Assembly: GCA_051362555.1 (NCBI GenBank)
Contig: CM120640.1
Coordinates: forward strand, 43,130,788-43,194,787
Source: Lingula anatina
Taxonomy: Eukaryota; Animalia; Brachiopoda
DNA: 64,000 nt
Reading direction: 5' to 3'
Part shown: positions 2,122 to 48,060 of the stretch, in pieces
How positions within the stretch are numbered: position 1 is the first letter of the stretch
How the letters are laid out: every line of letters starts with the position of its first letter
Notes under the pieces: generated by a model
Told to the model about the DNA's origin: nothing
The model's database searches: none
What the model saw: only the letters and a program-made list of their open reading frames with translations
Program-made: the position numbers and the translations under genes

Positions 2122-4380
2122 ATGTTAGGGTTTCTAGTAGGCCTACAAGTTCTTTGGGTTGTTCTTGTTGGACTGAACACTGCAAAAGGACAGCAATTTA
2201 AAGGTACTGTAATAGAGCAGGATCCCAGAGGGTTAAGCATGCCCGAAAAGATCACCAATTTTCTTGTGCCTGGCCTACATGCTTACCTATATATGAAAAT
2301 GGGAGTCTGCCGTATTTCCAGTGGTGGGTGTGGTCAGGGGTGGGTCCAAAACAAAGGCCCTCAAATCCAGCTAGCTGGAATTTTTTAGGGGAACCCTTGA
2401 TGTTGTTTTTATGCTATTGCGCGGTGCATACAAATCTTAATTGCTAAAAATTGAACATCGGTATTGTACAAAAGAAGCCGCAAAGTTCCTAAAAAAATCA
2501 CGCCCAAAGAGCCACACCCTTTATGTACAGCTAGCATGCCCTTAAACTTAACCCTTAAACTTAACTTGGAAAATTTTCATTAGAGTCCCAGGAAGCTGGA
2601 ATGACCATCGACAGACAATTTAAGTGGTGGGTTGTGCCCAGCAGAAACGCTCAAAGAGCCACGCCCCTAATGTACAGCTAGATGTACCCGTAATGTAACT
2701 CTTTCAAAATGGCTGGAAAATGTTAGGTAGAGTTCCAGGATAGATTATTGACCGGGCACTACCCACCACTTAAATTGTCTGACGACGGTCATTCTAGCTT
2801 CCTGGGACTCTAAGAAACGTTTTCCAGTTATTTTTTAGGGTTAATTTTTGGGGCATGCTAACTGTAGGCCTACATTAGGCATGCTACCTTTACAATAAGG
2901 GTGTGGCTCTTAAGGCATGTCTGCCGGGCACTACCCAGCAATTAAATTGTCTGCCGATGGTCATTCTAGCTTCCTTGGACTCTAAGGAACATTTTCCAGT
3001 CATTTTTTAGGATTAACTTTTGGGGCATACTATCTGCTCATTAAGAGTGCGGCTCTTTGGTTTTGTCTGCCGGGCACTACCCACCACTTTAATTGTCTGT
3101 CGTTGGTAATTTCAGCTTCCTCTAAGGAACATTTTCCAGTTGGAGCATGCTAGCTGTACTTAAGGGGTGTGGCTCTTTGGATGTGTCTGCCGGGCACTAC
3201 CCATCACTTAAATTGTCTGTCGATGGTCATTCAACTTTCCTGGGACCCTAAGGAACATTTTTCAGTTGTTTTTTTAGGTTTAACTTTTGGGGCATTCTAG
3301 CCGGATTTCCACCACCTATAAATCAGGGTCTGCCAGCCACACCCCATCACTCAGTTTATCCGCCAGTATCTATTTGATATACCTGAGACCATGCTGAAAG
3401 ACCCCCAATAGGTTTCTAAGGGTTCCCCTAAAAAATTCCAGCTAGCTGGATTTGAGGGCCTTTGTTTTGGACCACCCTGACCACACTCACCACTGGAAAT
3501 ACGGCAGGCTCCCATTTTCATGTTTAGGTAAGCATGCAGGTCATTGCCAGGTACAAGAAAATTGGTGATCTTTCGGGCATGCTCAACCCTGGGATCCCGG
3601 ACTATAAATTTACCACCCAAAAATAAGCATGTTAGCTTAAATCGGTCACCCATTAAAGAAGGCATGCGTGTTTTTTTTTTACTATTGCTAAATTTATAAG
3701 ACAGATGTTTTAGAAGACAACATTTTGAAATGAATTGCTGTAGCTATAGTTATATGGGGTATGACTGCCATTTGAGCTTGCTTGCCTTTAGAAATAAGTA
3801 TCGTTTTGAGTGAATAGTTAGATTGTGGAAATACAGTGCAGGGAGAAATTGAGGAAAGGTGACAATTAGGCATTTAAGATGCTTTCCATGAAAAAAAATT
3901 ACGGTATACAACATGGTTTAAACAATGGTCTAAAACGGTTAAGTTTCCACAGAATGTGCAGCTCTCCCGGGTCTGAGAAGAAACCGTGTGGTCGGTGGAA
4001 ATGAAGCGTCACCTAACCACTGGTCCTCTGTCGGTAGCCTCCAAACAATATCCTCTACCTACATCTGTGGCGGAAGCATCATTACTCCAAATTGGGTTGT
4101 TACTGCGGCACACTGTTTGGATTCGTAAGTTTCTAATGATTAGGAGAAAAAAATTAAAATCATGAATTGATGCTAGAAAATCACACACAAAAATGGTTTA
4201 CAAGTCACCTTTTGCATCTGCACACACCCTACTACGTTACGGGTGTAAGCGACAAACTTCTTTTTCTTTTTGTAACAGCACAGATGACAACCACAGACCT
4301 TAAAGATATAAAGCAATTTTTTGGTTAACAAAATAAGGCGTGGAGGTTTGGATTGTATTCTACACCATTTCCAAGAAATT

Positions 4381-4419
<39 letters not shown>

Positions 4420-6056
4420 GATCATATCTGGAGTCCCATTTTTTTCTATTGGTCCCATCATCCATTTATCTGTTGCAGTATCCACGACGATGCTGATGAC
4501 TATCAAGTCGTCTTTGGTGATCATAATCAAGATCCAAGTTCTGGACGGGAAGTAATTGCGCGTGTGTCCAGGATTATCAAGGTACATGTACGGGTGGAAT
4601 TACAGAGAGGTGCGGTCCATGCTGTGATGTCACATTTTTATTGTTTAAAAGTCACATTCCAAACCTTCGGATAATAAGTTATGGTTTATAATCTTGCCAA
4701 TTATCTTTACAACACCAATATATTTTTATTCATTATAATTTATTTATTGCAGGTAGAAACATGGTAAATTTTATATTTATTTCCCCCACAATTAAAAATT
4801 AAAAAACAAAAATACTACGATAAAATTATCAAAATAATAATTAAATGAATAAAGTTTGACAGTTTGAAAGAGGTAGGTAGAGTAATTTTTTAGCATTAGT
4901 TGTGCTGGGACATTGTGTGTGGTTTTGACAGCAGTAGTGTGGCTCTGACCATTTTAATTTTGAGAATTCAGCATTACATGTTTAATTTTGCTTAAATCTT
5001 TTTAACATAAGATTGAAAAAAAAGTGAAAGAAGTTTTTCAGCTTTATTTAGGCTGTCTAAAGTAAATTATAAAATATTTTCAGCATGAGCATTATGGAAG
5101 TGACGGTCCTGGTTTCCGAAACGATATCGCACTGCTGAAGTTGAGCCAGCCGGTGCAGTTTACCCGGTACATACAGCCTGCTTGCCTGCCGACAGTGAAC
5201 AACGTATTTACTTCGTCAGACGAGTGCTTGATACTAGGTTGGGGAGAGACAAAAGGTACGTAGTTACGTGTGTCCGCGCGTTCCTCACATAGAAATCAGA
5301 GAGAGAGAGAGAGAGAGCAGCATTTCATAAAAACGAGGACCTATGAAACGGTTTGATGCGCTAAATATATTAAGAATTGCGAAGCGCAGACATTGAGGTC
5401 AAGAACTGCCCCTTGAGCTAATGAGCAATTGTAATACGCTGACAACATCAAGCTGATTGCGTATGTTGTTTTAGGTACAAGAGAAAGTAACGTCCTGCTG
5501 AGGGAACTGCGCCTTGACATCATACCCAACACCAACTGCTCTGCCATGTGGTCCAAGTACCCGCATCCAGGAGCCAGGGTGTTGCCATTTCACATCTGTG
5601 TCGGGGTTGTAGGCAGTGAAACTTGTAACGTACGTGCAGCAATGATCCTCATTGAGACTATAATCAAATATTATATTTTATGTATTCACGCGGTTTCAAG
5701 TGCTTTTGTAAGTGCGGTTATAAAAAATCGAATCGGTAAGAAATGCTGTGGTGAGTGAAAATATTATAACGAAAATGAAATCATAAATATATATTTACTT
5801 TAAGGTGGTCACTTTTTCCTCAAATAAATTTTCCACTTGTTTATTATTACTTATTTTACAGGGTGACAGCGACGGCCATGTCTTCTGCAAGAAAGGAGAT
5901 CAATGGGTGACGGTGGGCGTGTCCTCGTGGGCAGTTGGCGACTGTGACACCCCCGAGTTTCCAGCAGTATATTCAAGGATCACCTCCTATTTGTCCTGGA
6001 TACGACACATCATACAGCAAGATACTACTACCACCCCAGGGGCTGCATTTGGATGA
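2122..6056 (+). CDS. Secreted S1A (trypsin/chymotrypsin-fold) serine protease, ~292 aa, 6 exons
   Basis: In-phase GT-AG exons 2122-2203, 3953-4124, 4479-4581, 5084-5255, 5475-5629, 5862-6056. Signal peptide MLGFLVGLQVLWVVLVG, activation site R|VVGG, CGGSII..VVTAAHC, NDIALLKL, GWG, TCNGDSDGH, GVSSW, PAVYSRI. Confidence 0.93.
2215..3602. mobile_element. Foldback/MITE-like non-autonomous DNA element with ~180-bp terminal inverted repeats, in protease intron 1
   Basis: ~2219-2397 is the near-identical reverse complement of ~3417-3597; TA on both flanks (2213-2214, 3603-3604); internal repeats in opposite orientations; no transposase ORF. Confidence 0.8.
2500..3300. repeat. Internal 120-170-bp repeat array of the foldback element
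   Basis: ccgggcactaccca(c/g/t)ca..ttaattgtctg starts at ~2752, 2924, 3070 and 3190; about two copies in reverse orientation at ~2500-2745. Confidence 0.8.
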
Positions 6057-6811: not shown

Positions 6812-9800
6812 TTATTTCAGTCTTGCTTTCAGGTCTATTGCCACAAGTCTGTCTTGTCTCAAAAACTGCAAAGAATTAGGAAAATATGAAGCTTTAGTAG
6901 ATTACTTTAAATGAATTTGAATATTTATACATTTTACCCCAGAAAATAATTAACCTCTCATATTGTCTGTATGATGTATTTAAATGTTTTCATATTACAT
7001 AAGGTACATGTTGTAAAATTTTGAGTGCTACCCAACCTCTTCATTTGTGTCGGTTTTCTATTACAGTAAATGAAAGGGTATTATATTCTGTTTAAAATGT
7101 TTCAGTGTGTCAGGCATGAATGGAACCTATATAAGTCTACATCTTTCCCTTTTCTCTGCAATTTGATGGAACAAGGCATTGAGATGTAAAGAGCTTAAGA
7201 TATGTGCACATCTTGGATATGAGATAAAACCAAAGAACTGAATGAGAGGACATTAAGAAAAGCTGATAGTTTCTTTACCTGTAGGCATTTTGACATCAAA
7301 TGGGCCAAGACGGCATCTTCCACAGAGGATACATCTGGAAGTCTAATTTGTTGAGTTCTCACCTGAAGTTCCAAGACATTAAATATATTTAGAATCATTT
7401 CCCTTGAATATATGGCTCATATGGAGTCTAATAATAATTAATAAAAGTTTTAAAAATAATCCCATCACTTTTAATAAATAAGTAAATAAATTACAGACAG
7501 GCATACAGATAAATGAATACAAATGTCACAAAAAATTGCAATGGCATTTTACTACAGTATGTCATGTAAGACTTTATCCAACTGAAGGTTAAATATCCAC
7601 CTTAGTTCTGATCATTTCAGGATTATCATGTCTAAAGCTGTGCAGGACGCTCCGACTTGTAATCAGGTGGTATATAAGGCAGCCGAGACCCCAACTGTCA
7701 CTCTTGGCATTTGGACATTCTCCCTGAAGTAACTAGAAAGAAAGTGAGAACAACTTACAGACATTACTAAGCAATAGACAAAATGGTACACTAGGGATGT
7801 GTAAGTAAGGCAGGGACTGTGTGAAAGAACGGTCAAATTATGCCATATGTGTTACATGTAAGTGAGCCAATACTCACCTCAGGTGGAGCTATATCTGTTG
7901 GCAGTCTGAGTGCTATGTCTGCCATACTTTCTTCTGTACCTTGTGTTTCTACAGAGACTGCTGCAGAGAAATTACTCAGCTTGGCAATTTCCTTACTGTA
8001 ATTTAGCACAATGTTTGAATCTGAAATGTAATATGCAAAATATTAAGTATTTAATCAAGATTGTCAACAAAACCCAATTACATTCACATGTATTATTATT
8101 TTCCAAATACTACTTAAATTACTGTTAATGAAACAATTAACAGATCACTCCAGACCCATACTGTATGTGATGTGTATATAAAAATTTAAATCTGTATTCA
8201 AAATCTCATTTTGGCTACTTTCATAAAAAAAACGAAATCTTTGACACAGATACAATTTCAATAACGTTAAGTATATCAAATTAACAAAATCAGGGATGAA
8301 TTGCAATGCACAATTTATAAAAACATTAGATGTGGAGCACTTGATTACTGTCACTATAGCTTTAGGGTGACGAGGTATCCAAGTGATACACATATTTATA
8401 ATATAGTACTAGTACCTGTCCACAAAAGGTAAACTATATTTCTTTGATGCAGAAAGTGTGCTGCTTCCAAAATCTGTCTAAGGTACACCTTGATGTATTT
8501 AGCTCTCACTGCAGGTTGGACTGCACCTATCAGGTCTCCTAGTGTTTGCCCTACATGAATGAAATATGGCATTATGCTATAGCTATCATAAACTGCATCC
8601 ATCAGGTTTGTCAAAATACGGAAAATTGATTATACAGATTAAACTTGATATGACTGATATATTTTAAGAACAAACACTTGATGTCAAATATTATGAAATG
8701 AGTTAAGGTGTTATCCAATTATTTGTCATTGATACAAGTGATTTCTGGTTTCATTGTCTTTTTTTTCTGGTCTCACTATTTTAATAACTATGGAGTCTTG
8801 AGTTACAAAACAGACTTGAGATCTTATTTGCACTTACCAGTTTCATAGCAGGAACAAACATGCATAAACTTCCTATCACTATCCAAGGCTACCCAGAGGT
8901 GCTGGACAATATATGCACTAGCTTCTTGCCAGCTAAGGCTCTTTAACAAGTCAAGAGTTTCTGCATTGTGTTTCATCTAAAAAAAATGCAAATGCTATGA
9001 ATTTTGATACAGTGATGGGACTGGTGTAAATGCAATTATTGTCTAGGTCATTATTCATAATTTAAATCAATCACTTGATTAAAAGAAAAAAAATTATCTT
9101 TGCACTTGGTTTATACTTATTTTGATAAACACAATTAACTAGTATTAAATAATAAAATAACCACAACAGAGTCATCAGCTTCTATAAAATCTTCCCTTTG
9201 AGTGAATGGAATGTAACATTATTCAAAGATTAAAAAAAAGATCAAATTCATATACCTGTATCATGCACACTTCAGACTTAGAAATTAATTAAAAAACATA
9301 AATGTATTATACTTTTAAAATTCATATCTATAGTTTCAATTTTCAAACCCATAATATTTACCTTTTTGATAAACCAATAACAAATGTCATTATTCTTCCC
9401 ATCGCAGTTTATTTCTGGAACAGCCAATACAGCGCTCCCAAACTTGCCCATTCTTGTGATAGGATCCCAGTGTCTTGCCTGACTGTCACCCATGCCACGT
9501 TGTAGCTAAAAAGATATGTTAAAAAAACTTAAAGGACAGCACACTCAACTTAACTCCTCACTATTTTATTTTTACAAAGTCTTTATTGGAACTTCTTGCT
9601 AACAGCTCACTACTTCCCTCTTGAAAAGTAATGGTCTCATCATCCTCTTCTCATTTTATATGGAATGAAAATGTGAGGAATACATTCACTTAACAAAAGT
9701 GAAGAGAAAATATATGGTCTTCAAATGTATATTTAAGGGGTATATTTAAAGTGTATATCAAGTCAGATATACCCTTAAATATATATTTCAAGCGTATACC

Positions 9801-12800
9801 TGCATTGCACTAGATGTGTTACTTAAAATTAGACTCAGAATTATGGGTATTCTTAGACAAGTAATAATTTTATTTGAAAATGTTTGGTTTTTTATAGTTA
9901 TCTTAAATCGAAATTCATTTCAAGTGACAAAATACATTGCAATGCTTCCACCACCATTTGTTAAAACAGACTTAAAAAATAATTTCAAATAAAAGGATAG
10001 TGCTGGTAAAGTCAAGTATAATATTCTTATTAACTGGTATCTCCATTAGGGCCCTACCTTTATGATTTTCATGTCATCTGTAAAAGGTTCCAGCATCAGG
10101 TTTTGATATTCTGAGACTAGTTTAACCATTTGCTCATCAGCGTCCTCATCACTAAAACAGTTAACACAGGCTTTAGTAGCACAGTTTGTCATGCCGATTG
10201 AGTAAAATTCCAAACTAGCTGAAGTCTTATTCATCACCTCACATGTGTATTTTAAAAACAATAATTAGATGTCTCACCAATCTCTTTACAATTTGCCCTT
10301 GATTTCTATACAAAAAAATTATTAAAAAAAGTATAACTGCAGAAAGCATATGCCAAATAATTAATCCTTTTGAAATCCCACCCAACAGTTTTGTAATAAC
10401 TGCAAATATTGAAATATGGCTAAGGTAACAGTGGGAGCTAGGTTTGGCTACATGTAAGTGTGACTGTCTTTTCTATCTGCTTTTCATTTTGATTGCATTT
10501 CTTTGCTTGTCATTTCTTCAGCTATTTGTTGTAATGTTTCATGACTTTTTTATTTCTTCTTTTTTTAACTGCTGAATTATCTCTCATATAATTTCTATCC
10601 ATTCCTGTAGATTTGCAATTAAATTCATTAGAAACAAACATTCAAAATCAAGTAATGAAATTAAAAAGGGACAATATCAAGTAGCACACTGGGATTTTTA
10701 CACTCACCTTAAATCGCAAAAAAAGCTACACCACTGAAGAGGACATCTGACCTCGGCACAGCAGCCAGCATGGTCACTTGCCCATTGCAACACATGTGTA
10801 CATGTTACACACTGCCATATTTGTTTTTCACTATGCAGGTGATCTTCAACATGTTTCAGGCGATTTTTACCCTACAGATATGATAACACATTAGCTACGG
10901 CTAATCTTGGCACTACAATGCATAGGAGAAGTATATACATTTCTAAGCCCATGCCATGAATATCCGAAAAATATTATTTTTATCAAAAGAGTATCTCTCT
11001 AAACCTATTTTCTCAAATAAACCCCAACCGTTTTTAGCATCTCAAAATATGTAAATATAAATAAATATAAGTGGCAGTTATGACTGATTCAATACGCTGA
11101 TAAAGGATGACAAAATGATGTGAATTGAAACTTTACCCGTAAACAACTGACATCAGTACAATGCGGGTCGAAACATCTGGCTGCCTTCAAAAGAATGTTT
11201 TCTAGGCTGCTGTTGGTGCAGGGCGGGCTCAGCTCTACCTGTTGATAGAATACAATATTTATGACTTACACTTACAGCATACAGAAATATTTCACATACA
11301 TGATTCAAAATTTAATACAGACAGTTACATTTCAGCACCCTTTCAATTTTCTAACCTTCCCCAACTATCAAATACAATAAAATTACTGAAATATTTCCTT
11401 AGTTTCACCACTTCAACAGGTTTGTCTCATTTGCATTTTGCTTGAAAATTATGTATTTAGGTGTCTCTGTGTAATTTGCAGTAGCATTTGCACATGGACA
11501 GTAGCACATCTCACACAGTTCACTTCATCTGGGCTCACCTGCACATTGGTGGCCATTACACTTACGTTTATATAAAGATTATAGTTACTTTTTGTGTCAA
11601 AAATTAAACTATAAAGGAAAATGAAATACCTCAATCTCCAGTCTCTGTTCATTTCTCATACCATGTGCATCTAAATTGTGAGCTCCAGGTTCTTCTGGAA
11701 TTGTGTGTAAGTTCCCACCAGCATCCACGTCATCCTCAAAACTAAACACCCTGGAATCTCCTCCACTGCCAGGAGTTTTAGATTTGGCTGAACTAGTACT
11801 GGGGGTGCTAAGAGACTTGCTGCTGTGCTTTCTGTAACACTTTGCATCTGAAAATATATCAGATTTGCTCATTTCTACTTGAAATGTTTAATAGTCTTAA
11901 CATAAATGTTGAACATTCATATCTGTCTGATGATCTCAGATTTCATTTCAATTTCATTGATCACAAATATTCTTAGACACCTATAATTTAGTATAATGTC
12001 TTCAGCAATGATATCTGCATTGTCATTTTTCTTCCAATTAATGATACATGATTTCTATTTAACCTTGTTTTCACAATCTTAAAAATGGCAGCTGTAATCT
12101 AATAGATTTTTTATCTTATTTAAATACTAGTAATGAAAATTTAAAGAAAGTTTTGTAAGCCAATACTAAAAATGCAAAATTTGATTACTTGGTGGTGATG
12201 GTTCAGAATCTGATGAAGCTACAATTGAGGGAAGTCGCTCCACAAGGGTTTCTGGTTCCATATTTGTGAACATGTCACTAACCATTGCCTGGATGTTTTC
12301 TGTACGGAGGCGTTTTTCTAAATCATCTTGATGAAACCTGATAAAACTGGAGGGCTGATCATCCTGTGGCTTGTCGTCCTCTTTATCAATACTAATTTCA
12401 GGTGGATCCACTAACAACATCATATCAAAACCATTGCCTTTTTGTGGGGGAACTGGGGTATGTTCTAACAGTTCTTTTTGAGAGTTTCTGTGCTCCTCTT
12501 GAGAAGATATTTGAAAGGAGGACAACTGAAAACTTGAGTCATTAGTATCTAGTTTACTCATATTTGGTGCATTTCCTTCCAAAGGGTGTGTATAGGGTTG
12601 AGAAGATGAACTTGAAGTGCCTTCTTGGGGTATAAACACATCCTCTTCCTCCTCCTGGTCCCCCTCACCTGTACCATAACCACTAGATTCCTTCTGCTTC
12701 CTAAAGGAGTCCCTCCTAGCAACCGCATCACTGGTTGAGCCAGCTGTAGAAACTTTTTGGTTTGACTCTTCATCATTCTTTTGCTGTTTTCCATAAATTT

Positions 12801-13575
12801 CTTTCCAGGTTTCCCTTTCAAATACAACATCCCTTCTTCCCTGAAGCTGATCAACTGAAAAGTATCTTATATTGACCTCTTTTTGTTTAGGTCCTTCATC
12901 ACTCCAACTGACAGTCTTTTGTAGGCGTGGCCTGTGCTTATTCTCACTTGTTTTACTGGATGTTGACCTGAGGCAACGTGACTTGGGGGTATCACTATTA
13001 CCTAACATAGTACTTGCATCCCCAGGATCACTTTCTTCATCCTGTACTATGGCCTCAAGACTGTCAAGGTGTCTGTTGCTAATGTCCTCTATAACACTGA
13101 TCTGTTTCGACTCTCCTGGTGAAATGGGCGGGGTTGAGCATTCAACAAGGTCAGGGATAGAGCTATGATGTGACAAATTCATAGGTACTGGGGCATTTTC
13201 CAAAGTCGAACTGAATGGGAGCCCTTCTCCTATGCTTTCTGGATCAGGTACAGAATGATCCGTACATTCTCCTGTTGCCGTAACATCATGCTTACTGTAC
13301 CCTTCACTGTTCTGTCTATGTTGTCTTTCCAGGATTCTGTCCCTTGAAGGAACAATTTTGAAATCAGGTGTGCTTGTCTGATAAGAAAGGACTGGTTGGG
13401 TTAGCACAGATATATCTCTGGGAAAATGCTGCTGAACAGCCCTGAAGAAAAAAGCATTTCTGTGAATTAAACTGTTTATCTCACTGGAGTTGCACACGAC
13501 ACTATCACTATCCAGGTTGCTGTCATCTTTGATATCAGTAGAGTTTTTTTCATATTCTTCACTTGAGGCTGTCAT
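6812..13575 (-). CDS. ~931-aa protein: disordered Ser/acidic N-terminus + TAZ-like zinc finger + C-terminal pseudokinase, 12 coding exons
   Basis: In-phase GT-AG exons 13575-12189, 11847-11630, 11238-11137, 10871-10708, 10151-10058, 9505-9362, 8976-8838, 8550-8416, 8020-7878, 7732-7601, 7362-7279, 6865-6812. Kinase subdomains: MGKFGSAV, WFIKK, YLRQILEAAHFLHQRNIVYLLWTDSNIV, AKLSNFS, APPE, KSDSWGLGC, KCL..R. Confidence 0.85.
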
Positions 13576-13745: not shown

Positions 13746-13750
<5 letters not shown>

Positions 13751-14233
13751 ACCTGTAGAGAAATAATATATAAGCTGTTTGTATGACAGTAAATTAATTT
13801 CACATTAAAGATTGTGAGTGTACTGTCCAGTACCAGTATTTAATTTCATAGTTGAAATTTCAGTAATTACATAATTTCCTGACTCAGATGTGTACAAACT
13901 ATATTTTACCCAATGTCAAAAATCTATTTTGTTGTGTCAGTGATAAGAGTTGAGGGATCAACAATAATTGAAGAATAATGTATTTATAATGCATTGTACA
14001 TGTATACGGAACAATAGTCAAATTTATCTTTAATTAATGCATGTCACCATGCACAGTAGCGTCACCCACAAAACATTTTATTTTCAATGTTACCAACCAC
14101 AGTAACAGCCCTTCCGAGTCGAAAAGAACTTTTGATTTAATGTTGTTATGATTCACGAGTCATGATAAGCCATTGCACAAAACTGCATCCTTGTACAATT
14201 ACTTTTTAAGTTAAACGATACCTTGCCGCTTAC

Positions 14234-14895
14234 CGGGTACGTACTGCTTCCGTTCTGGTCAGTCTTTCACAAACGATTTCCGGACACGTTAAATACGTCA
14301 CTGAAACCCTTGATGGGTAACCCTGTGAACATTACAGCAGTGCATTTTCTGTGCCCCATTTTGTTTTCCAAGAAAACCACCGTATGTGTCATATGTAAAC
14401 ATTGCAAGTAATAGCCTGCATTTTCGAATTTAAAACCATGACAATGCTAAAAATTCACTGTACAATAACTTGAATGCTTCGACGTTATGTCTAATTAGCT
14501 TGAATGATATATGACGTTGGTTTATTGGTTTAATTTAAAGAAAAGTTTGCCACTTTCATTTTCAAATTAGAGCACAACAGGGTCAAGGTCATTACAGTAG
14601 TCTCTAATCGCTGATGATTTATATTCATTTATCATTATTTTAAGTCATATATTTTTAGCTATCCACTTCAACATGAATGCAAATATAAATTATGATGTTC
14701 ATGATTCAGCTAAACTTTTCGAGCAGTTTTTACAATTATAACTACGTTTTTCTTGTAAGCCATTCATGGGCTATGTAAAGGTCAGTATGTAGGTCACGCC
14801 TAGCCAATCAGATTCAAACGAGCGACATTTTGATTTTTCTCATGGAGTTGGTAGTGTTTACTTTACAAGGATAAAATCGTGGTGATTCTTTAGAG
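14234..14895. promoter_or_regulatory. Probable bidirectional promoter region between the pseudokinase (-) and TTK (+), with CCAAT and CHR-like motifs
   Basis: Minus-strand donor ccg|GTAAGC at 14234 and plus-strand donor gag|GTAAT at 14895 suggest divergent non-coding first exons. CCAAT at 14804-14808 is followed by TTCAAA (reverse CHR TTTGAA) at 14813-14818; ATTGG at 14524-14528. Confidence 0.55.
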
Positions 14896-15663
14896 GTAAT
14901 GTTATATGCATGATGGTATGGAATATATTTCAAAGACTGTTTTGCCCGTCGACAAAATTTCTCAATTAACGCGTGTCTATACTCTTATAACTAGATTGTT
15001 GTCATCGACTTGCAGTAAGTTGCACTCAAGTCTTAACAAGGTTCCGACTTGCTGCTCGTGTAATTTAAGTTTTCTTACCTAAGAACAAGTGTTAAACGCT
15101 TTTTTATATTCAGCATTATACCGTACTCATACATAAAACCTCAAAAAAGTGGTCAATGTTCTGCTGTCACCTTCTTCGATTGAAAACTTTTAAATTGAAA
15201 TCTTTATCCTTTCATAATGACAGCCTCTCTTTATGACACAAGAAGAAGTTTGTAAAGAACTGATATAAATCCTGTGCAGCAGATTTTAAAAAATCAAATA
15301 GTGATAGCAAAAAAAAAAAAAAATTAATAAAATACTATCAAGGGAATGAGCCTCAGTCGCCTATTTTGTGTGTGTAATGCCACTCTGTTGGATTTTTCAT
15401 GTCTACATTAGGCAAAGAGTATCTATAACTTCCAGCCATTATGGTTTTCTTCCTTACATTATTTTAACCAAGATAGCATGGTAGATACTAGGTGTACTGT
15501 TTGGATTACAGTAAGTACCATCATTATTTCTATTCTATTTTGAGTTATTGAAGAGTTCACAATTACCTGTTTTTGCTTCTTGCCTGCTTTTTTCTACCCA
15601 TATAACCCTGCTGACACTTAAAACTTGGGTCATTGTATTTTATACTTTATTTTCAGTATCAAA

Positions 15664-18600
15664 ATGTCTAGCCTTCAGGCATTGAAGAGCCGTTTGCAGA
15701 AGGTGGAGGAAATAAAAAAAGAAAACACACAAGAAGTAACAGGTTGGTATATCTCTCTAACTTTTTTTGTGAATTTTTGTACGGTCAAACATTTTTATGA
15801 CATACAGCAGTAATAAATAATAATGCTGTTTTTTTACGCACCAGATCACAGCACCTGGATAAAGAAGATAGATGATCTTGGCAATAAACCTGATGACTGG
15901 TTGCAGTACACCAGATTTGTCAAAGGACAGGTCCAGTTTACAGATGAAGAGAGGAGACACTCTTATTTGTGCAGTGTATATGAGAAGGCAATGAAGGTAC
16001 ATATACACCATTCAACTGCTGGGTTAATGGTCAAGCTGAAATGTCCATTGCTGTTGAAGACAGTTCTAGTTTATGTTGCCAGGGATATCTGGACAATAGC
16101 AGTAGCAACGGTTACTTTCTGTCAGTATATTAGAATGTATTCATATACATGTTAGCTGAAGTTGATACTTCAACTTGCCTCCTTAACCCATACTTCTGCT
16201 AGAATTTAAAAAGTTGGGGAAAATTATTAATTACATTTCTTTGATTTTTCAGGCCATAGCTTTTGACAGCAATAAAAAGAATACATCATATGCTCAGCTG
16301 CTTATTGATTATGCAAATCTCAAGGCGTATGTATTCCCATGCCTTTTTTAAACCAATATTCCTGTCTTGGACACATAAATTAAATAAGATCAGTTTCATG
16401 GTGCTGATTAAGTTAAAGACATTGGTTACATTCAGTAGTTCTTTGCAAAAAGAAAGGAATCAGTAGGTTATGTCCCATTGATCATCATTAAAATGATGTT
16501 AGAGTTGGTTGATATGGGAATATGACTAGTGTATAGTTGCATAACATTTCAGTGAATATGACACAGATGAAGCAGAGGCCATGTTCAACCATGCTAGGTA
16601 CAACTTAAAAGGCATCTCTATAGTGCACATAGCAGCTGCACAGTTTCATCTCAATCAAGGTATGTATATGTACATATTGTCCTTCTTTAAAACTTTAAAA
16701 CTGTATTGTCACTGTTATCATCAAAGATATTGTTAAATCTTATCTTCTGAACCTAGATATTTCAGTGATCAATTTTAATTATGAATTGGAGCAGTAATTG
16801 GGGGGAAAGCATCTATTTTTGGACAGACGCAGCACAAAGAATATTGTATTTCACTGTAAGAGTCGGGTCCTGATTTTGACATGCTTGCATTGTTTCTTGT
16901 ATATAGGCAATCCCCAGAAGTGCAAAAAGATCATCGAAAAGGCTAAAGATGTTGGTGCCCAGCCCACAGAGCTCCTGAACATAGCTTTCAAGAACTTCAC
17001 CTATGATAAACGTGTTTTGTTGTCGGAGCAGGACATAGAGGAAGCATTAGGTGTGTGTTTTAATGAATTACTTAAAGTGCCCAATTACCAACTCACTTAA
17101 AACGTGTGTGTAAATTCTTATATCCAGACACTTAAAATTAGACACTCCAAGTGTAATAATGTTAGCAAATCTTTACTAGTATCAAGCTGGCATTAATTGG
17201 ATCTTTATGATAAAAGGAAACGATGAAGAAATTTACATTTTAAATGAAAATAGTGATTTGCACCTTCCCCCTCCCAAGTAAAAAACACTTTAAAATGCCC
17301 ATTCTTTTTACACAATGTTGATACAGTATACATTTTTTTCATGGTCAGGCTATGTTCTTGTGTCAGATAAACTGAGAGGTAACTGTTCAGATTTTTCACC
17401 TGAGCAGATTTTTGTCTTTGCACGCTTACCTGCTTGGCAAGGGCACATACTAAATGGATGATTTTTTTTTTTTTTTTTTAACGGAAGTAGGATGGGGATA
17501 CACACTGTCAAGATGTACTTTGGCATTGTGTTTTAGATTTAGTCAGGGAACAAGCTTTTTATATTTTACCTATAGTTTGGAATAGAAAACCATTTCTTAA
17601 CAGTCTGGCTGGCTACATCAATGTATATTTGCAAAAAGAAATTTTAGTCAAGTAGCATGTACATTGCATGTAACCAGGCAGACGGTAATAATATTCACCT
17701 ACTTGCTTGTCTACCATTTATACTATGTAATGCTTTTACCCTTGATATATTTTATAATCTATTTAACATTATTATGCCTAATGGAAAAGAACAGGCTGTT
17801 TTCCTGTGCTTCATTACATAGTCCAGTCAAAATGCTGCATTGTTGTTCATGAGAGTATGTTAGATTTTATACACAAAGAATTTATCTGAAGGATCTAAAG
17901 GTATATGATTGTGGAATAATGAAATTTCATGCAACAAGTGATAAGATAAGAATACCAACATGGTTATACAATGAAACTTTTAAGTAGATGTTACAGTTGT
18001 GTAATGTGCATGTTAGGACTTGTGTACTAGTATGTGATTATTACTATAATTTATCAAGTACCATTGCCATAATTATGCTTCATAATTTTTTATTGATAAC
18101 CAACAAGATCTACTGAATTCTTTTCAGATCCTAAGTCGAGGCAGGACAAGGAGAATCAGAAACCTGTCGAATTGCTCCCTGCCAGGAAGTCTTGGCTGAG
18201 CAGTTCAGATGTTCAGAAGCCTAAAGGACACCAGTTACCTGCAAGGCATGCTAGTGGTGGTGGACAGACCCCAGTCACCAGTGCCTCAACCGAGTCTCAA
18301 AGTCAGCAGCAAAGAGATGTGGTTGCTTCTGGTTCTGCATCAAGGCAGCAGAGGCCCACCAGCATAGGTCAAGTATCCAGTAGTACTGCAGCTGACCCTG
18401 CAACACCAGAAGAACAAGAAAGAATTACCACTAAACCCCCTTCAGGAAATAACAGGTGCTTTTCAGTGTTTAGGCAGTCTTTTCTGGTGGTTGTGTTTCA
18501 AGTGAAAAAAGTAATTGTGGATAGTGTGTTTGTATGTAAAGCTGCTGCTCTAAGCACCTGATTGAAGTGAATTTGTTTTCCTACAGTAAATATAGCTAGT

Positions 18601-21600
18601 TCACATTTTTGTAATGCAGCAACATTTTTTAATCGGAAAGACTCATATTGTGTTGCTTTTTGTATTATCACAAAAGCCTATACGAAAGTGGGAAGTCTAA
18701 ATTTTGAGGAAGTCGTGTGCAACAACCTAAATGGTGCATTATGTTTCCAGGAAACTTGGTGGTCAGCCCTCTAGCTCCACACCAGATGCCCCTCATCCAC
18801 CAGGAGAACTGTCCATGGCAGACTGTATGCTAACACTGAACCCTCTTGTACTGGTGGATAACACGGTCAGTTTCAGAAAACCTGGATCTATAAGGTAATG
18901 ACAATAAACACATAGTTTTTAGACCTAAATATCTTCTAGTGTTTGAGTTTTAAAAAGGCATCATAAAGATTGGGATTTTGAACTGATATTTCAGACATAT
19001 TTTTAGACCATTTGATTGATTGATATGCTCCTTGTGTTCACAGGACTAGAAACTGCAGCAGCAACAGCTCTGAGGACTCTGACACTATCCCAATGATTTT
19101 TGAGACCTCTAAAACTACAACCAGGCCCCAACACAATAGCACAGCCAATGCAGCACCCCACAGTGTGACCAAGCCTTCATTGCGCTCTAGCACATCTGTC
19201 ACATCTGCCACACTCAGTGCTATCAAGCCTTCACTCAGGGCTTATAACAGTACTCCAGATTGCAAGTCTGCTGGACCAACCAGTTTTGGGTCCTCAGTTA
19301 GGAGAAGGTAATATGATGGAATATACAGAAAAGATACTTCCATTTCTTGTAAATTTATTATTTTGTGAAAGTTGTTGTTTAAAGGGATAATAACTTTGTA
19401 TCAGCCAAAAAATGAATTTTCCTGGAGTAAACAACAATTTTCCCATACTTACTAATGGTTAATGAATTCATTTTTACATTCAAAGTTAGTCCCTGTTTTT
19501 TATTTCTAAAAAGTTTGGTTTTTGTTAAAATCTTTTAAGAGATTTTAACAGAGAATAGCCATCAATGGAGGTCACGTGGTCTAAAGACAAGCTCAGATAT
19601 CAGAATAATAGCTATAACTGCTGTTTTTGTGGTAAAACAGAATATATTATATTTCTATGAGTTATTCACAATGTTTTTATTGTGAAATATAGATCTCATA
19701 CGAAGAGTTATTATCCCTTTAACCTATTATAATGTTGCAACAAGTTCATTGTTATTGTTTGAGACACATTGCTGCAACTTGCATTTGGTAGGATTAATGT
19801 TTTTAAAAAAGAGCATTAGCTTTTTATTTATATTTTTGATGTGTGTTATTGAACAGATAAATTTGAAGAGTACAGTTTTATCAAGTACATTTTCTAGCAG
19901 GGCTAAAAGTATAAGAAGCTGCAACAGAAAAATTTCATGGTCAGTTCAAGTGCAAGTTACTACTGATAAATGTCCCATCATTGCATGAAGGTTATCTTTT
20001 GTATATGTATAATGTGCTACTAATACTGTAACCAATATTTGCAGGCCAGAGTTTGGGCTGCCAATGAGAGTTAAGAGAACATCTCTGCCACAGTTGAAGG
20101 AAGCAAGGAAGGGATTGGACGAGGATGACGAAGAAGAAGAAGAGGAGGATAATGGAGATATTGACAGCAGCCTTACTGGAATCAAACCTCTTAATTTACA
20201 GCATATGAATGGTTGGTTAACTTAGTTTGATTATTTTCCTTATTGTGGGTAATTGTTTCTGTTGTGGAAGAAGTGTTTAAAGATTTTAGGAAGTAAGATA
20301 GATGAGAAGGGACCGTTTTCCATAGCAGTTTGGCAGATGTGGCAGTTTTAATTCAAGTCTGGGGTATCTCCAGCACTTACACTATTGATATGCTAAATGT
20401 TCCCTAATGGCTTTCCTCCATTTAATGCAAATTAGTCCTATGTTGGTGTTTCATTGATAAACTTGTGACATGTCTTGTGGCAGGTTTGCTTGGCTCACAG
20501 TCTGCTTTGACAATTTGTTGGTCTGTTATTTTTCCCCTGTTGCAATAAAATTATATTATTTTAAAGATGAACTTCTCTGTTTTTATCCCATAGGTTCTAT
20601 GAGTAAAGGGCAGGACACTGCTGACAGTGGCGTGTTTGAACAGTGCTCTACAGAACCCATGGAAGTCAATCACATGGAACATAATAGCACAGAGCCCATG
20701 GAAATAGACAGCCCTGTGGCTAAGAAACCACTTAGGAGTTCTGTGGAAATGCAGAAAAATAATACATTATCTTGTGCTAGCAAAACTGGGCCCAAGAAAA
20801 ATGACTCCCAAGCTAATAGGTTACCCCAGAACTCTAATCCACATGGCTATCTTGAGCCCAGGTCAGCTAGAAAAGCTCAACTACAATCTTGCATTCAGGA
20901 CCAACTGCCAATACAGACAGTTCCTGCACCCTTTCCTTTGGTGCAAACACCCTCTCAGCATGGTGTTGGGTAAGTTTGGGCACGTTTTAATCTACCCAAA
21001 TTGAGCCCAAAGTTGACACTTTATAAAGCAAGGTTGCCACTAGGTTTTGCACTTTGGGTTCAGTTTAGGAAGGAATGAAGGGCTGAAAGAATTTAAGGTT
21101 GTTACTCTTTTATCTTGTTAGAAAAATTGTTAATTTTCTTGAAAGTTGGTAAGGTAACCCTCTAATGGCAAACCTAGTGATAGATATTTTTCTCTCACTG
21201 TTTTATGGAAACTTGAAATCTAAATACATGATAATCTGAAATGTGTTGCTATTTGGTGCTGCTATATGTTTTGAAATACATTTGAAATATTGATATCGCC
21301 TTCTCTGTAAGAATGATGCACTATTTCACTTTGAAGAGAAGACCCGTTATTTTAAATTTTGATTGTCTTTTAGATATGTTATGTCCACACCATCTGCCAA
21401 TAGTCATCAGTTCCTTCCACAACAGCAACAACTGTACAGTAACCCATCGTCTTACCCTCACCAGCCTGGTGCTGGCCTGGCTGCCTGTACCCCTGTGGTG
21501 GTAAGTGTTTCATGTGCTATGTTTCTCTTGATAACAAGATATAAGATTATTCATGATCTCAAAGAAAAAATAAGGTGTAAAACAGCTACATTTTGCTCTT

Positions 21601-22476
21601 GTCACAAGATATTCATCAGGCTGAATGCCCACAGGTCTTGTCAGCTCGTGTGCTGCCAGTGCAAATTGTTCATCTTTTTTGCTTGTAAACTGCTCAGTAT
21701 TTTTTAATGCTTTTTATGCTTACAGAAACCCTCAGATATCTTGACAGTGAATGGCCAAGTTTATTCCATACTGAAAGTGGTTGGGAGAGGGGGATCAAGC
21801 AAGGTAAGGTTTACTGTATATAATATTGGAAATCATTGGTAAAGGGAGTCCAGTAAGGTACAAAAGCAGGAAGTGTCCTTGAGGCATTTGAAATAATAAT
21901 GTCTTTTTACATATTCCAAAAACAAATGCACATTGTAATCCAGTAAATAAATGCACAGATGGGAATTTTTTATATGTGGTGAAAAATTGTTAATGGTAAA
22001 AAAAAAGACCTACTATTCTTGAATAGGGATGTTTATTAAAGTATTTGTTTCTTATTATAACAGTTTGTTATTACTTTAGGTGTATAAGGTTATCAACAAC
22101 AACAAGGACATCTTGGCAGTGAAGTCTGTGAACTTGGAGGGTGCTGATGACATGACACTGGAAGGCTACAAGAATGAGATTACATTACTGAAAAGGCTGC
22201 AATACAGTGATAAAGTTATCAAGATGTTTGATTTGTAAGTTAATTGATTTTCTCATTGTTGATTCAGTTGCAAAAGGGGGTACCAGGGAGATAAAAGCAC
22301 TAAAGTATAATTTAGAAATGGAGGTTTGATGGCAGGTATGAAATAATAATTGGTTAGGCCAGTTTTGTGATGATTTATTTGCAACTTTACAGCATTTATT
22401 GATAGAATACTTTTTTGTCAAAAAGTGTGGCTATTATTATTATTATTTTTTTATTTTTTTATTTATTTATTTTTTT

Positions 22477-22507
<31 letters not shown>

Positions 22508-24939
22508 TTGTGTAATTCTTTAGTCAGGTCATGTTTAATAAATAAAACATTTAGGTAGATAGCATTTTTCTTTCTGTGTTTATATACCTTTACAATAGTG
22601 GAAGTCCAATATCACTTCTTGTCTTACTTTGTAGTGAGTACAACAAGGCGGAGAACCTGCTGTATGTGGTCATGGAGTGTGGAGACACAGACCTGGCCAC
22701 CCTGCTGAGGACCCGCAGTAAACAAGGGGGCATCACCACTGCACTCAGGAAGTTCTACTGGGAGGAGATGCTGCAGGCAGTCAAAGTACTGCACCAGGAA
22801 GGTAGGTCTTGTGATATAAAGAGATCAGCTTAGTTATTAGTTATATTATATGTATTATATTTCAGTAAATAATAGTTGGTATTGACATTTCAAGACTGCT
22901 TGCTCTATCGAGCCAACTCAGGTTGAAGCGGTGTTCATTTTCTTTTGTATTCATTCTCATAGACTGTCTTGAGGTGCTATTGTATTTCTTTGATACTATT
23001 TTCCACAGTCTTATTAGCTGAATAAATATAATTCCATTTTTATTATCTTTTCAGACATCATTCACTCTGACCTAAAGCCAGCTAATTTTCTGCTGGTAGA
23101 GGGCAACTTGAAGCTTATTGACTTTGGTATTGCCAATGCCATCCAACAGGATAAGACCAGTGTTATTCGGGAGTCACAAATAGGGACACTGAACTTTATG
23201 AGTCCAGAGGCCATCTTAGACACCTGTGGTGGAACACAAGTAGATGAAAATGGCAAAATTAAGCAGAGGATTAAAGTAAGTGGATATTTGTTATGTGAAC
23301 CACCAGGTATATCAGATTTTTAAAGTTATGGTATGTGAGTGAAAGGATTACAGTTAGAAAAGTTTGAAAGAGGATAGAAACATGAGTAGCCGTTCATATA
23401 TTCATTAACCAGAAGATCAGTGTACATGTGCACAACAAAGTTTTATCAAACTGTTGTCAAAGGGATTATTACAGAATCTTAGAAAAAATAACTAAGCCAT
23501 CCAATTTTATGTTGTGGACTACATGTAGTTTATAATTTTGTAGTATATACTTTGGCACAATAAATGTTTTTTAAGATTGGGTTTAAAGAATTGCCTGCAA
23601 TTTCTTCATTATTTTACAAAACTGACTTTTGGTTCCAGATCGGAGTAAAAAGTGATGTGTGGTCACTAGGCTGCATACTGTACAACATGACATACAGCCG
23701 CACTCCATTCCAACATGTCACCAACCAGTTTGCCAAACTTCAGGCTATAGTTAATCCCAAAGTGGAGATCCAGTTCCCTGAAGTAGAAGACGCACTTTTG
23801 ATGGATGTTTTAAAGGTTTTTCTCTTTGTGTATATTCTTGTATATTTTTTCTTCCATTTTATTCATTGACAGATGGAAATCGGCTGTTGGTGCGAGGTCA
23901 TATTTTTTACTCATCAAAATTTGTATGTAATATTGTCTAACAGCAACATTTGAACCTACTTTTCCTCCATGTTATCTTGCATATTATATAAATTACAAAA
24001 GTCTTACCAGTTCAAGAATAAAATCTACTAGCACTACCTAACAAATTAATTATTTCAACAGCTCCCATATAAATTTCTCTCTTGCTTTAAATTTTATGCT
24101 TTACATTTGCTACATTCCAGAAATGTCTAATCCGTGACCCCAAAGATCGTCCTTCAATTGAGGATCTGCTGGCTCATCCTTATCTTAGAAAAGTTGAAGA
24201 AAATACTGTGCCAAGTTCTTGTAGGTTTTTTATATACAATTATCCACAGTACACAGCACATTAATTTTTTAAATGATGGATAAAAATTATGATATTGTGT
24301 GTAATATGTCAAACTATTTAATAAACTTATATTATGGTATTACACATTTCAAGTATGTCAACTCTCTTAACACATTCCAAATATTTCTATTTTTCAGGTT
24401 CACATACTGAGGAAAGTCTACAAAGGGTAATACTTCAGCTATCTCAGGCCAATGTCAACTCTCCTAGGAGTCTTAGTGCAATATCAAAGGTATAACTCTT
24501 ATGGTGGATCAACATAATCTTTGAGGCCTGGTAATAAAAATTATGAATTTTTTTGATGAACTCTAGCACTTAAGAAATTCTTGATCTATATTAACAATTT
24601 ATTTAAAAGAACTTTTTGTTATGTTGGTTCTGAATTTATTTGATTGTTTTTAAATTAATTTATATTCTAACTCAAGGGTCTTCTGGCGCAACTGCAGTCA
24701 GGGAAAGAACTGGATGTGAGCAGTTTGGTAAAGAAAAGGGTGAGAACAGTTTGTAAACACTTTCATCAGTAATGCTAATGTATACATCCCTGATTATTCC
24801 AAGCTGTAAACCAAATTGCAGATAACAGGACTTGCCATTTCTCCATGTTGTCGTTTTTTTTTTTCATGGTGTGCACATATTTCTCTTCTAGGCTCCACCA
24901 CCAGTATGCCCACCAGAGCTTCACCCAGGTAGCAGGTGA
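15664..24939 (+). CDS. TTK: Dual-specificity spindle-checkpoint kinase TTK/Mps1, ~20 coding exons
   Basis: N-terminal TPR-like region ([10 protein letters not shown]...VHIAAAQF...[10 protein letters not shown]), disordered middle, and a kinase domain with Mps1-diagnostic motifs [82 protein letters not shown]. Last exons and stop (TGA 24937-24939) are less certain. Confidence 0.95.
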
Positions 24940-25787: not shown

Positions 25788-26929
25788 TAAGTGCCATTTA
25801 CTTAGTATTTGGTCAGAACATGTGAATAATATTTATTGTAATAATAAGTAATTAGCTGGTACAGGGTGGAGCTGCCATCTATATGTTATTAGTTTATTAT
25901 CTTCTCCCATAGAACTTTTAACACACTAATTATATAAAGTATATACATTTTAACAATATTAGAATATTTGATCAAAAAAATAAAGAATGCTAGTTGCTGA
26001 TAGGAAGAATTTTTTCTATATTTCCTTATTTCCAAGTGTAAGCTTCATCTGTCCTCCCATCAGAAAATGTTTTCTGGAACAGTTTAATTTTGAATAATCT
26101 CACTCTCATTTCTTTCATGAACTTGGGTTTTCGAAGTAGGAAAAGGAAACTTACTTGGTGTAAATGTGTATAGTTTAATCATTTATCCTTGTATATAGTG
26201 ACGAAAATGTAATATCTCCATTTAAGAATGTCATTTGGTTTAATTTTTGTTGCAGCAGTGACTGCAGAAATTCTTGTCTGAATATAAGCATATGTATTAA
26301 CCTTGTAAATATATCATTATATTTAGTACTGTTGTTGTTGTTGTTTTTGATTAACCTTCAAGACTGGTATCGGCATTTATGTAATATTGAGATGTATGGG
26401 ATGAGTTTGAAACTGTCCCTACGAGCAATTACCCCAAAACCATAAGACTAATTTTACTGGAGGCTCAGTACGAAGTATACCCCTGATTAAGATTTGTATG
26501 TAGGTTATTTGGTCCCACTATGTTTGCCAGGTAAACAAAGCTGACCTAGTTGAAGGTGTTCCCCCACTGCCTGTGAGGAGCAATGATAATGTAGCTCAAA
26601 GTCCACTGGAAGAAAACCCCCATGCAAAGGGGTGTGACAAAACCAGCTGATAACAGAGAACACGTGATTGCTCTGTGTGCACTGTTTTAGTCACTATGTC
26701 AGTGGTGTTTCAGGCTACTTTTAGGGTTGCAATTCAAACTGATAACTGCGAGATGGCTATACCTGCATGATTATATAGGACAGGCAGTTGAAATACAGCT
26801 TTCATCCACTAATATTAGGTCTCAGGGCTTTATGCATTGGTGCACTGGGTCTATGTCCTACAAACAAAAGTGATGACTATTTCATGGTAATCTATTACAA
26901 ATCACTGACACTGCATAAAGAATAGAGAG

Positions 26930-41810: not shown

Positions 41811-42430
41811 TGGAATGGATTCACCCCACCTGTCACCCCTCAATTGGAATGGACTCGCCCCACCTGCCACCCCTCAATTGGAATGGACTCATCCCACCTG
41901 CCACCCCTTAATTGGAATGGACTCGCTCCACCTGCCACCCCTCAAATGCAATGGACTCGCCCCACCTGTCACCCCTGAAATGGAATGGACTCGCCCCACC
42001 TGCCACCCCTCAATTGAAATGGACTCATCCCACCTGCCACCCCTCAATTGGAATGGACTCGCTCCACCTGCCACCCCTCAAATGCAATGGACTCTCCCCA
42101 CCTGCCATCCCTTAAATGGAATCGCCCCACCTGTCACCCCTTTATTAGAATGGACTCGCCCCACCTGCCACCCCTTAAATGGAATGGACTCGCCCCACCT
42201 GTCACCCCTTTATTAGAATGGACTCGCCCCACCTGCCACCCCTTAAATGGAATGGACTCGCCCCACCTGTCACCCCTTTATTAGAATGGACTCGCCCCAC
42301 CTGCCACCCCTTAAATGGAATGGACTCGTCCCACCCCTCCAATGGAATGGGCTCGCCCCACCTGCCACCCCTCAAATGGAATGGTCTCGCCCCACCTGCC
42401 ACCCCTCAATTGGAACGGATTTGCCCCACC
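41811..42430. repeat. Minisatellite, ~34-bp unit, ~18 copies
   Basis: Consensus tggaatggactcgccccacctgccacccctcaa(a/t) repeated head-to-tail. Confidence 0.95.

Positions 42431-48021: not shown

Positions 48022-48060
<39 letters not shown>

Follow-up and report, generated by a model that had tools for sequence, protein, structure and literature searches.

The brachiopod Lingula anatina carries, in a 64,000-nucleotide stretch of its genome (assembly GCA_051362555.1, contig CM120640.1, positions 43,130,788 to 43,194,787; this whole stretch is called the window, and positions are counted within it), a minus-strand gene in which a cysteine-rich segment precedes a degenerate kinase domain. A reading made from the sequence alone had recognised in this segment, at 10708..11238, a TAZ-like zinc finger missed by the open reading frame track, and had suggested an undescribed scaffold family. 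The locus raises the questions of whether the finger and the kinase belong to one expressed gene, whether the finger is a TAZ domain, and what such a protein could do. Our results indicate that the gene belongs to a TAZ2-pseudokinase family that is real, expressed, conserved and apparently undescribed.

Gene structure and expression

Twelve coding exons, with GT-AG ends, span 13575 to 6812 and together give an open frame of 931 codons. RNA reads of the same species from four runs (X1, X3, X4 and X7) cover all 11 introns, and the gene is thus expressed; the joints are taken from short reads, which by themselves do not prove one full-length molecule. The exons are as follows.

14236..14300, minus strand: non-coding first exon, with a donor near 14236 to which loose read ends at 13634 in X3, X4 and X7 match; 14300 is a lower bound for this exon because the 5' end is unmapped; within the CpG-rich stretch shared with the divergent TTK/MPS1-like gene
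12189..13575, minus strand: coding exon 1, residues 1-463, acidic and Ser-rich, disordered; ATG at 13575, exon start at 13634
11630..11847, minus strand: coding exon 2, residues 463-535, end of the disordered region, from RNA reads and the predicted local distance difference test (pLDDT) of the model
11137..11238, minus strand: exon 3, residues 536-569, helix 1 of the TAZ2-like finger together with zinc site 1 (C557, C562, C567, with K553 for His)
10708..10871, minus strand: exon 4, residues 570-624, TAZ2-like helices 2-4 and sites 2 and 3
10058..10151, minus strand: exon 5, residues 624-655, linker helix 628-640 (amphipathic, conserved), then the first part of the N-terminal extension of the kinase (pLDDT 75-91)
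9362..9505, minus strand: exon 6, residues 656-703, partial Gly loop (G675-x-F-G678) and beta-3 Lys702
8838..8976, minus strand: exon 7, residues 704-750, alphaC (no conserved Glu), beta-4/5 and hinge
8416..8550, minus strand: exon 8, residues 750-795, alphaD/E and degenerate catalytic loop, YLLW for HRDL, L792 at the catalytic Asp
7878..8020, minus strand: exon 9, residues 795-842, NFS for DFG and PPE for APE
7601..7732, minus strand: exon 10, residues 843-886, alphaF DSWG and family-invariant H877
7279..7362, minus strand: exon 11, residues 887-914, from RNA reads and the open frame
6812..6865, minus strand: exon 12, residues 915-931 and stop; AATAAA at 6669

The two finger exons, of 102 nt (11238-11137, phase 0) and 164 nt (10871-10708), both have AG/GT ends and lie in frame between the upstream exons and the kinase exons. 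In X1/X3/X4/X7, the joint of exon 2 with the first finger exon is covered by 5/6/0/5 reads, that between the two finger exons by 0/3/0/6 reads, and that of the second finger exon with the linker-kinase exon by 7/1/3/5 reads; no exon-skipping joint was listed in the RNA reads at a listing threshold of 3 reads. The finger peptide is accordingly present at 10708..11238 and is spliced into the kinase transcript, as the sequence-only reading had supposed. It had been missed only in part: the exons are already contained in RefSeq XP_013421730 (Lingula anatina, 'uncharacterized protein LOC106181796'), which has the same 931 residues with 5 substitutions, but the domain itself is unannotated, and Pfam returns kinase models only.

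One of the differing codons, 719 (exon 7, at 8931), encodes Trp in the window and Arg in RefSeq and most reads, so that Trp719 is an allele or an assembly variant. Read variants at 39 of 105 variant places comprise 12 silent and 6 changing ones in the linker and kinase, and 8 silent and 13 changing ones in the disordered arm; the trend fits constraint, in a subset that is small and selected.

A TAZ2-like finger with altered zinc sites

By profile and predicted structure, residues 541-627 have the TAZ2 fold of CBP/p300. A family profile made from 30 stretches and run against PDB sequences gave 22 matches at E <=10, all of them CBP/p300 TAZ chains, with E values of 2e-14 to 2e-9 for TAZ2 and of 0.08-0.5 for TAZ1. 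When the profile was built without Lingula, the Lingula stretch scored 50.8 bits versus at most 7.0 for 1000 shuffles, so the match lies far beyond chance. The predicted model of the finger (pLDDT 89) has helices at 5-16, 25-42, 51-66 and 77-85 in model numbering, and the top 12 rows of its Foldseek search are all TAZ2. Superposed on CBP TAZ2 it gives a Z score of 11.6 and a root-mean-square deviation of 2.2 over 83 of 87 residues, compared with Z scores of 5.0 for TAZ1 and 3.6 for the next unrelated chain. In the ESM Atlas, residues 536-630 adjoin zf-TAZ clusters, with a feature score of 0.89 (a lead by the Atlas rule) and structural template modelling (TM) scores of 0.66-0.75. The proposed TAZ fold is thus borne out by the family profile, the predicted structure and Foldseek, and can be narrowed to TAZ2.

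Pfam does not see it. At E values up to 10, the 931-residue protein matches only kinase models (Pkinase at 719-924, and PK_Tyr_Ser-Thr) and no zf-TAZ, and the single finger exons match nothing. The zf-TAZ gathering score of 25 bits is not reached by any of the members that were scanned; sub-threshold matches were obtained at 11-14.5 bits in 8 of 35 proteins and at 13.1-17.7 bits in 5 of 8. With Pfam silent, the TAZ identity is visible only by family profile and structure; a zf-TAZ check as the sequence-only reading had proposed therefore fails with the Pfam model but succeeds with the family profile against PDB (E 2e-14). The CBP/p300 hallmarks KAT11, bromodomain, KIX and ZZ were likewise without a match in the 931 residues (Pfam, E up to 10).

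The zinc sites of the Lingula finger had been correctly assigned, with site 3 intact (H603-C607-C612-C617), site 1 lacking its His (K553, His in TAZ2, followed by C557, C562 and C567) and site 2 having His for Cys (H576-H580-C590-C593, HHCC). Three complete HCCC sites, as in CBP/p300 TAZ2, do not characterise the family. Across 33 clusters with a whole finger, site 3 is invariant or nearly so, and the three Cys of site 1 are kept in all 33, while the position of the TAZ2 His is mostly R or K (R in 13, K in 5); in one distant member the site 1 His lies one residue earlier. The site 2 pattern is present in six clusters (Lingula, amphioxus, Diadema, Holothuria, P0043 and P0090) and gone in 27 of the 33. 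The distant members P0043 and P0090 have a near-complete three-site finger and reach zf-TAZ E values of 0.005-0.006. The fingers can be arranged in a series: at one end P0043, amphioxus, sea urchin and Lingula have a near-complete three-site form, and at the other site 2 is gone, as in molluscs, the nemertean and the sea star.

Compared with CBP/p300 TAZ2 (CH3; PF02135; PDB 2ka6, 1f81, 3io2), the family finger shares the four-helix fold and the Cys spacing of sites 1 and 3. It differs in the missing site 1 His, the frequent absence of site 2, a neutral rather than strongly basic charge, scores that stayed under the Pfam threshold wherever a member was scanned, and its position ahead of a pseudokinase and not in an acetyltransferase or BTB protein. 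Atlas clusters also contain TAZ fingers outside CBP/p300, in BTB-TAZ proteins of plants and in nematode proteins with TAZ alone; unlike the present family these have no kinase, and none of the Atlas TAZ clusters shown carries a kinase family.

A conserved amphipathic helix (628-640; hydrophobic columns 632, 635 and 639) follows directly after the finger, and the full-length AlphaFold model has high confidence throughout about 545 to 931, the linker among it, which suggests that finger, helix and kinase form one folded unit in the predicted structure. A complex prediction of the finger against the linker and kinase, in which the alignment was not used, gave scores of 0.00 and 0.20 against a mark of 0.34, and counts as evidence for neither side.

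A degenerate kinase domain

The C-terminal domain has a protein kinase fold (Pfam Pkinase E 8e-17; Z about 25 to NIK, ASK1 and NEK1). Aligned with MEKK2, DRAK1 and PLK2, the Lingula protein has YLLWTDSN for the HRD-type loop and NFS for DFG; K702 is kept, and L792 and N811 replace both catalytic aspartates, which upholds the earlier pseudokinase call. Among 36 aligned members the catalytic Asp column contains N 20, Y 6, A 3, L 2 and D 2, and the DFG Asp column N 26 and D 8. The beta-3 Lys is kept in 28 of 36 and the catalytic-loop Asn in 27 of 36, and the Gly loop is partial (G675 in 21, F677 in 17 and G678 in 17 of 36); a conserved Glu is missing from alphaC, and at the catalytic-loop Lys the members have T, K, S or A. 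Other residues are nearly or fully fixed: W793 in 35 of 36, and E842 and H877 in all 36. Since the cores are only about 23-34% identical to Lingula and yet keep these key residues, the fold is constrained. Among the fetched proteins, the finger was not found in any HRD-bearing kinase (best 2.5 bits).

Judged by its sequence, the domain is a pseudokinase under the definition given in PMC4718504, the lack of at least one of the beta-3 Lys, HRD Asp and DFG Asp. Two pseudokinases treated there, MLKL and STRAD-alpha, have a degenerate HRD and DFG as here and bind ATP without a cation, and MLKL keeps the beta-3 Lys (PMC4718504). From the kept beta-3 Lys and partial Gly loop, a similar cation-free ATP binding is plausible for the present family. 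MLKL differs in carrying a four-helix membrane-disrupting bundle, whereas here the N-terminal partner is a TAZ2 zinc finger.

Family and distribution

A phmmer search of 1.84 billion cluster representatives yielded about 30 proteins that match both finger and kinase at 23-34% identity, while word-indexed homolog searches returned the Lingula protein only. The 33 aligned clusters with a whole finger include P0043 and P0090, which came from weaker matches, and P0071; P0073 and P0084 were excluded as ordinary active kinases. Species could be assigned for 15 of 20 relatives examined. Named members are the nemertean Tubulanus; the gastropods and other molluscs Littorina, Aplysia, Nucella, Lymnaea, Babylonia, Elysia, Mactra, Saccostrea, Argopecten and Argonauta; and the deuterostomes Branchiostoma lanceolatum, Diadema, Holothuria and Patiria; annelids, cnidarians and tunicates are neither shown nor excluded. 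Their automatic labels range from 'uncharacterized' and 'MAP3K1' (amphioxus) to 'Nek8', 'ndrC' and 'Triple functional domain protein'.

Because members occur in lophotrochozoans and deuterostomes, a bilaterian origin can be deduced. A tree from the quick search is broadly in line with this, with weak support at depth: gastropod and bivalve subclades group well, and the deuterostomes (87) and Lingula with Tubulanus (86) weakly. Ten active kinases attach on a long branch with low support, and for this reason neither a root nor a parent was deduced. In an OrthoFinder supplement, the Aplysia member stands 1:1:1 with one oyster and one Biomphalaria protein and, among the rows listed, is absent from the fly and human ortholog sheets (PMC9334734).

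Among the papers listed by searches of the open full-text literature, none was recognised as describing a TAZ plus kinase or pseudokinase architecture, and six member accessions gave no match; subscription journals, bioRxiv supplements and InterPro automatic calls were outside the scope of these searches. Together with the family matches, this supports the suggestion of an undescribed scaffold family, which proves wider than had been guessed and reaches the deuterostomes.

Conserved motifs in the disordered arm

Most of residues 1-526 is predicted to be disordered (AlphaFold pLDDT <50). In an unbiased motif search of the N-terminal arms of 32 members, SSGY was found in 23, against 0.7 expected. 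Follow-up counts were made in 32 members against 500 local shuffles, with P0009 replaced by P0159 (same cluster, longer N-terminus), and four motifs were located in the Lingula arm.

13144..13158, minus strand: motif 1, IPDLV, residues 140-144; [LIVM]PD[LVI][VI] in 16 of 32 members, 0.19 in shuffles
12904..12918, minus strand: motif 2, KTVSW, residues 220-224, RVxF-type putative PP1-docking motif with a phosphorylatable Ser; [KR]x?V[ST][FW] in 15 of 32, 1.03 in shuffles
12670..12687, minus strand: motif 3, SSGYGT, residues 297-302, beta-TrCP-type putative phosphodegron with basic residues before it; [SD]SGYG[TS] in 20 of 32, 0.01 in shuffles
12385..12402, minus strand: motif 4, PEISI, residues 392-396, PxIxIT-like and the weakest of the four; PxIS[IV]-type in 13 of 32, 2.64 in shuffles

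For motifs 1-3, none of the 500 local shuffles reached the observed counts, and their order is kept in all 18 members with at least two of them. Motif 1, which we take to be 14-3-3-like, is preceded by R-x-x-S in 9 relatives, and motif 4 resembles a calcineurin (PxIxIT) site. A broader form of the degron is found in 27 of 32 members (2.19 in shuffles), with a basic residue at most 4 positions upstream in 22 of 32. Both the candidate degron consensus, D/S-S-G-x-x-S/T, and the candidate RVxF motif that marks PP1 interactors are thus conserved within the disordered region (pLDDT <50). Passages of PMC10317156 place SSG...S/T within the beta-TrCP consensus and give BimEL and DEPTOR as users of an SSGY-type degron; according to PMC6715587, about 90% of validated PP1 partners contain RVxF, and phosphorylation switches the motif off.

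Generic LxxIxE and LxVP patterns were not enriched in the 32 arms. A [DE][DE]VF RSK-docking motif is only weakly enriched (4 of 32, 0.69 in shuffles) and carries no weight in what follows. Two further motifs are lineage-limited: the RSK-docking-like [DE][DEN]VF, in 9 of 32 with 0.9 expected (EDVF at residues 311-314 of Lingula), and [DE][DE]LFG near the N-terminus, in 7 of 32 with 0.05 expected.

Proposed function and competing explanations

Building on the results above, that the gene is spliced and expressed, that its product has the predicted fold and has lost the catalytic residues, and that the family is conserved throughout with its motifs in a fixed order, we propose that the protein is probably a phosphorylation-controlled, short-lived pseudokinase signalling scaffold and not an enzyme. 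The conserved short motifs of the disordered half, as read from their consensus, appear to be the best clue to its mechanism. The RVxF-type motif would dock PP1 while the motif Ser is unphosphorylated; a basophilic kinase of the RSK, PKA or Aurora type would phosphorylate this Ser, the R-x-x-S beside PDLV and the SSGYG[TS] motif; and the phosphorylation would release PP1, possibly recruit 14-3-3, and create an SCF-beta-TrCP degron through which the protein would be destroyed. Finger, helix and dead kinase would act as one docking unit for a client, probably an active kinase or its substrate, with the finger serving as a structural cap and interaction surface that would have one invariant HCCC site and one three-Cys site.

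The layout of such a scaffold has a counterpart in the PEAK proteins, in which a long disordered N-terminal arm likewise precedes a C-terminal pseudokinase; to our knowledge, none of them carries a zinc finger. PEAK1, Pragmin and PEAK3 are dead scaffolds whose partners, 14-3-3 included, bind short motifs (PMC10279719), the motifs of the present family being proposed from sequence alone. The sites differ, being CrkII/Grb2 sites in PEAK versus RVxF and SSGYG[TS] here, as does the domain before the kinase, which here is TAZ2, and PEAK chains were not among the top sequence or fold matches shown. By analogy, the protein may work like PEAK-type scaffolds; relatedness beyond the kinase fold is not claimed.

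Several observations weigh against the scaffold proposal. The motif labels are consensus matches and hence provisional, and because most of the same 32 sequences in which enrichment was searched are molluscan, relatedness among them inflates the counts. For the generic 14-3-3 pattern there is no enrichment (21 of 32, 20.4 in shuffles). The degron extends to the echinoderms, but no named deuterostome member was seen to carry RVxF, and all four motifs are missing from amphioxus (P0159) and Tubulanus (P0004). P0043 and P0090 alone (2 of 36) keep both aspartates (LLDW...HDFS) as well as the beta-3 Lys, and may for this reason be active; they may also be closest to the ancestral state.

The alternatives that follow and the scaffold proposal are not fully exclusive. 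The sequence-only reading had implied a finger that works as in CBP/p300, where the basic surface of TAZ2 holds acidic transactivation segments; the protein could then be a decoy or adaptor that keeps CBP from reaching transcription factors or hands these over to PP1 or to a ubiquitin ligase. All 15 profile matches with E <1e-8 are CBP/p300 TAZ2-containing chains, and the titles of many TAZ2 structures among the Foldseek rows name complexes with p53, STAT1, C/EBP or p73 segments. Activation segments have a hydrophobic-x-x-hydrophobic-hydrophobic pattern, which the protein's own PDLV motif shares. Yet the net charge of the finger is 0 in Lingula, with a family mean of -0.5 and +5 or more in only 4 of 33, versus about +12 by a hand count on the p300 TAZ2 stretch; this sequence count argues against a basic surface of that kind, and the loss of site 2 in 27 of 33 and the replacement of the site 1 His, mostly by R or K, weaken the claim further. 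The adjoining amphipathic helix could, moreover, fill the groove in cis, and the PDLV stretch is undocked in the full-length model (pLDDT about 30). We regard this explanation as unlikely. Equally unlikely, in our judgement, is a more elaborate history in which a gene of the bilaterian ancestor captured a CBP/p300 TAZ2 and joined it to a kinase of MAP3K origin, which later lost its activity, giving a signal-gated adaptor whose finger would bind activation segments or its own PDLV, deliver PP1 and be destroyed via beta-TrCP. If true, lophotrochozoans and invertebrate deuterostomes would have retained a switch from a kinase pathway to transcription for more than 500 million years, with losses in the lineages of fly and human, and a partner ligand could complete the three-Cys site.

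The kinase domain could alternatively mark the protein as an inactive descendant of the MAP3K branch (NIK/COT/MEKK) that serves, in immune or stress signalling, as the allosteric partner of a MAP3K, MAP2K or IKK that is still active, and that is controlled by turnover as NIK is. NIK is first in both structure searches (Foldseek ranks 1-10; Z 25.2), MEKK2 is first in the sequence searches, the Atlas structure rows are mostly MAP3Ks, the amphioxus record was automatically labelled MAP3K1, and an Aplysia immunome survey states that NIK and Tpl2 orthologs could not be identified (PMC9334734). The five core introns of the kinase may also resemble those of MAP3K1. The ranks are nevertheless close to tied (NIK 25.2, ASK1 24.9, NEK1 24.8, MST2 24.6, COT 24.3), SLK and PAK1 stand above NIK in one of the sequence searches, and a shorter-member alignment puts EGFR, ULK3, JAK, NEK1 and TTK in the lead. 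NIK (MAP3K14), COT (MAP3K8) and MEKK2, although the best or tied-best matches in structure and sequence, are active kinases without a TAZ finger, and their intact HRD/DFG-type motifs are not found here. Identity to them is 16-20%, the alignment with NIK beginning at residue 647 in the N-terminal extension; the OrthoFinder rows listed in PMC9334734 have no human or fly ortholog, and the tree contained no animal NIK, COT or MEKK1 sequence. The parent kinase is at best STE-like, with the MEKK, NIK and COT candidates tied, and such an identity as a MAP3K partner seems to us rather improbable. More doubtful still is a role in cell division, mitotic or meiotic, as a scaffold that targets PP1 and is expressed together with TTK/MPS1 from a common promoter. 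The gene does lie head-to-head with a TTK/MPS1-like gene across one CpG-rich stretch (about 13750-15250; CpG observed/expected 0.7-1.0 versus at most 0.25 in flanking gene bodies), kinetochore RV[ST]F motifs are switched off by Aurora B (PMC6715587), and many beta-TrCP substrates are cell-cycle regulators (PMC10317156); but the two genes have no kinase intron position in common, and an origin by local TTK duplication was rejected on this ground. An atypical but active kinase is very improbable. The frequent beta-3 Lys and loop Asn, the partial Gly loop and the two members with both Asp would suit it, and a passage of PMC4718504 gives CASK as a precedent for cation-independent activity; against this stand, in Lingula, L792 and N811 in place of the catalytic and the DFG aspartate and, in the family, the lack of a conserved alphaC Glu and the T/K/S/A of the loop Lys column.

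Genomic context

The other features recognised in the window are listed below.

about 1950-2440 and about 3350-3740: protease open reading frame fragments, related to the following gene, that look like a duplicated insertion
about 4000-6053, plus strand: trypsin-like protease gene, tail-to-tail with the pseudokinase gene
14803-14815 (near): CCAAT box and adjacent TTCAAA, presumably CHR-like, upstream of the probable first TTK exon
15664-24500, plus strand: TTK/MPS1-like gene, ATG at about 15664, kinase exons 22080-24220, head-to-head with the pseudokinase gene
26900-30150, plus strand: DUF7064-domain gene
31082-34112, minus strand: GHDC-like gene with a GH3 domain, its first coding exon long, nested among genes of the plus strand
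41580-42520: array of tandem repeats, open reading frames on either strand, probably a minisatellite
47148-53260, minus strand: exons of UFL1 (E3 UFM1 ligase)
63017-63999, plus strand: MADF/Myb-SANT-like open reading frame, possibly part of a Harbinger-type element

Implications

The family is easily overlooked because it is seemingly absent from fly and human and goes under varying labels in automatic pipelines. It adds to animal signalling an ancient and apparently single-copy pseudokinase family, and it places a TAZ2 domain outside CBP/p300 in animals. Its members form a natural series of zinc-site loss, which offers a direct test of which sites the fold and binding need. The conserved RVxF and degron motifs make experiments possible in sea urchin, sea star, amphioxus, Aplysia and oyster.

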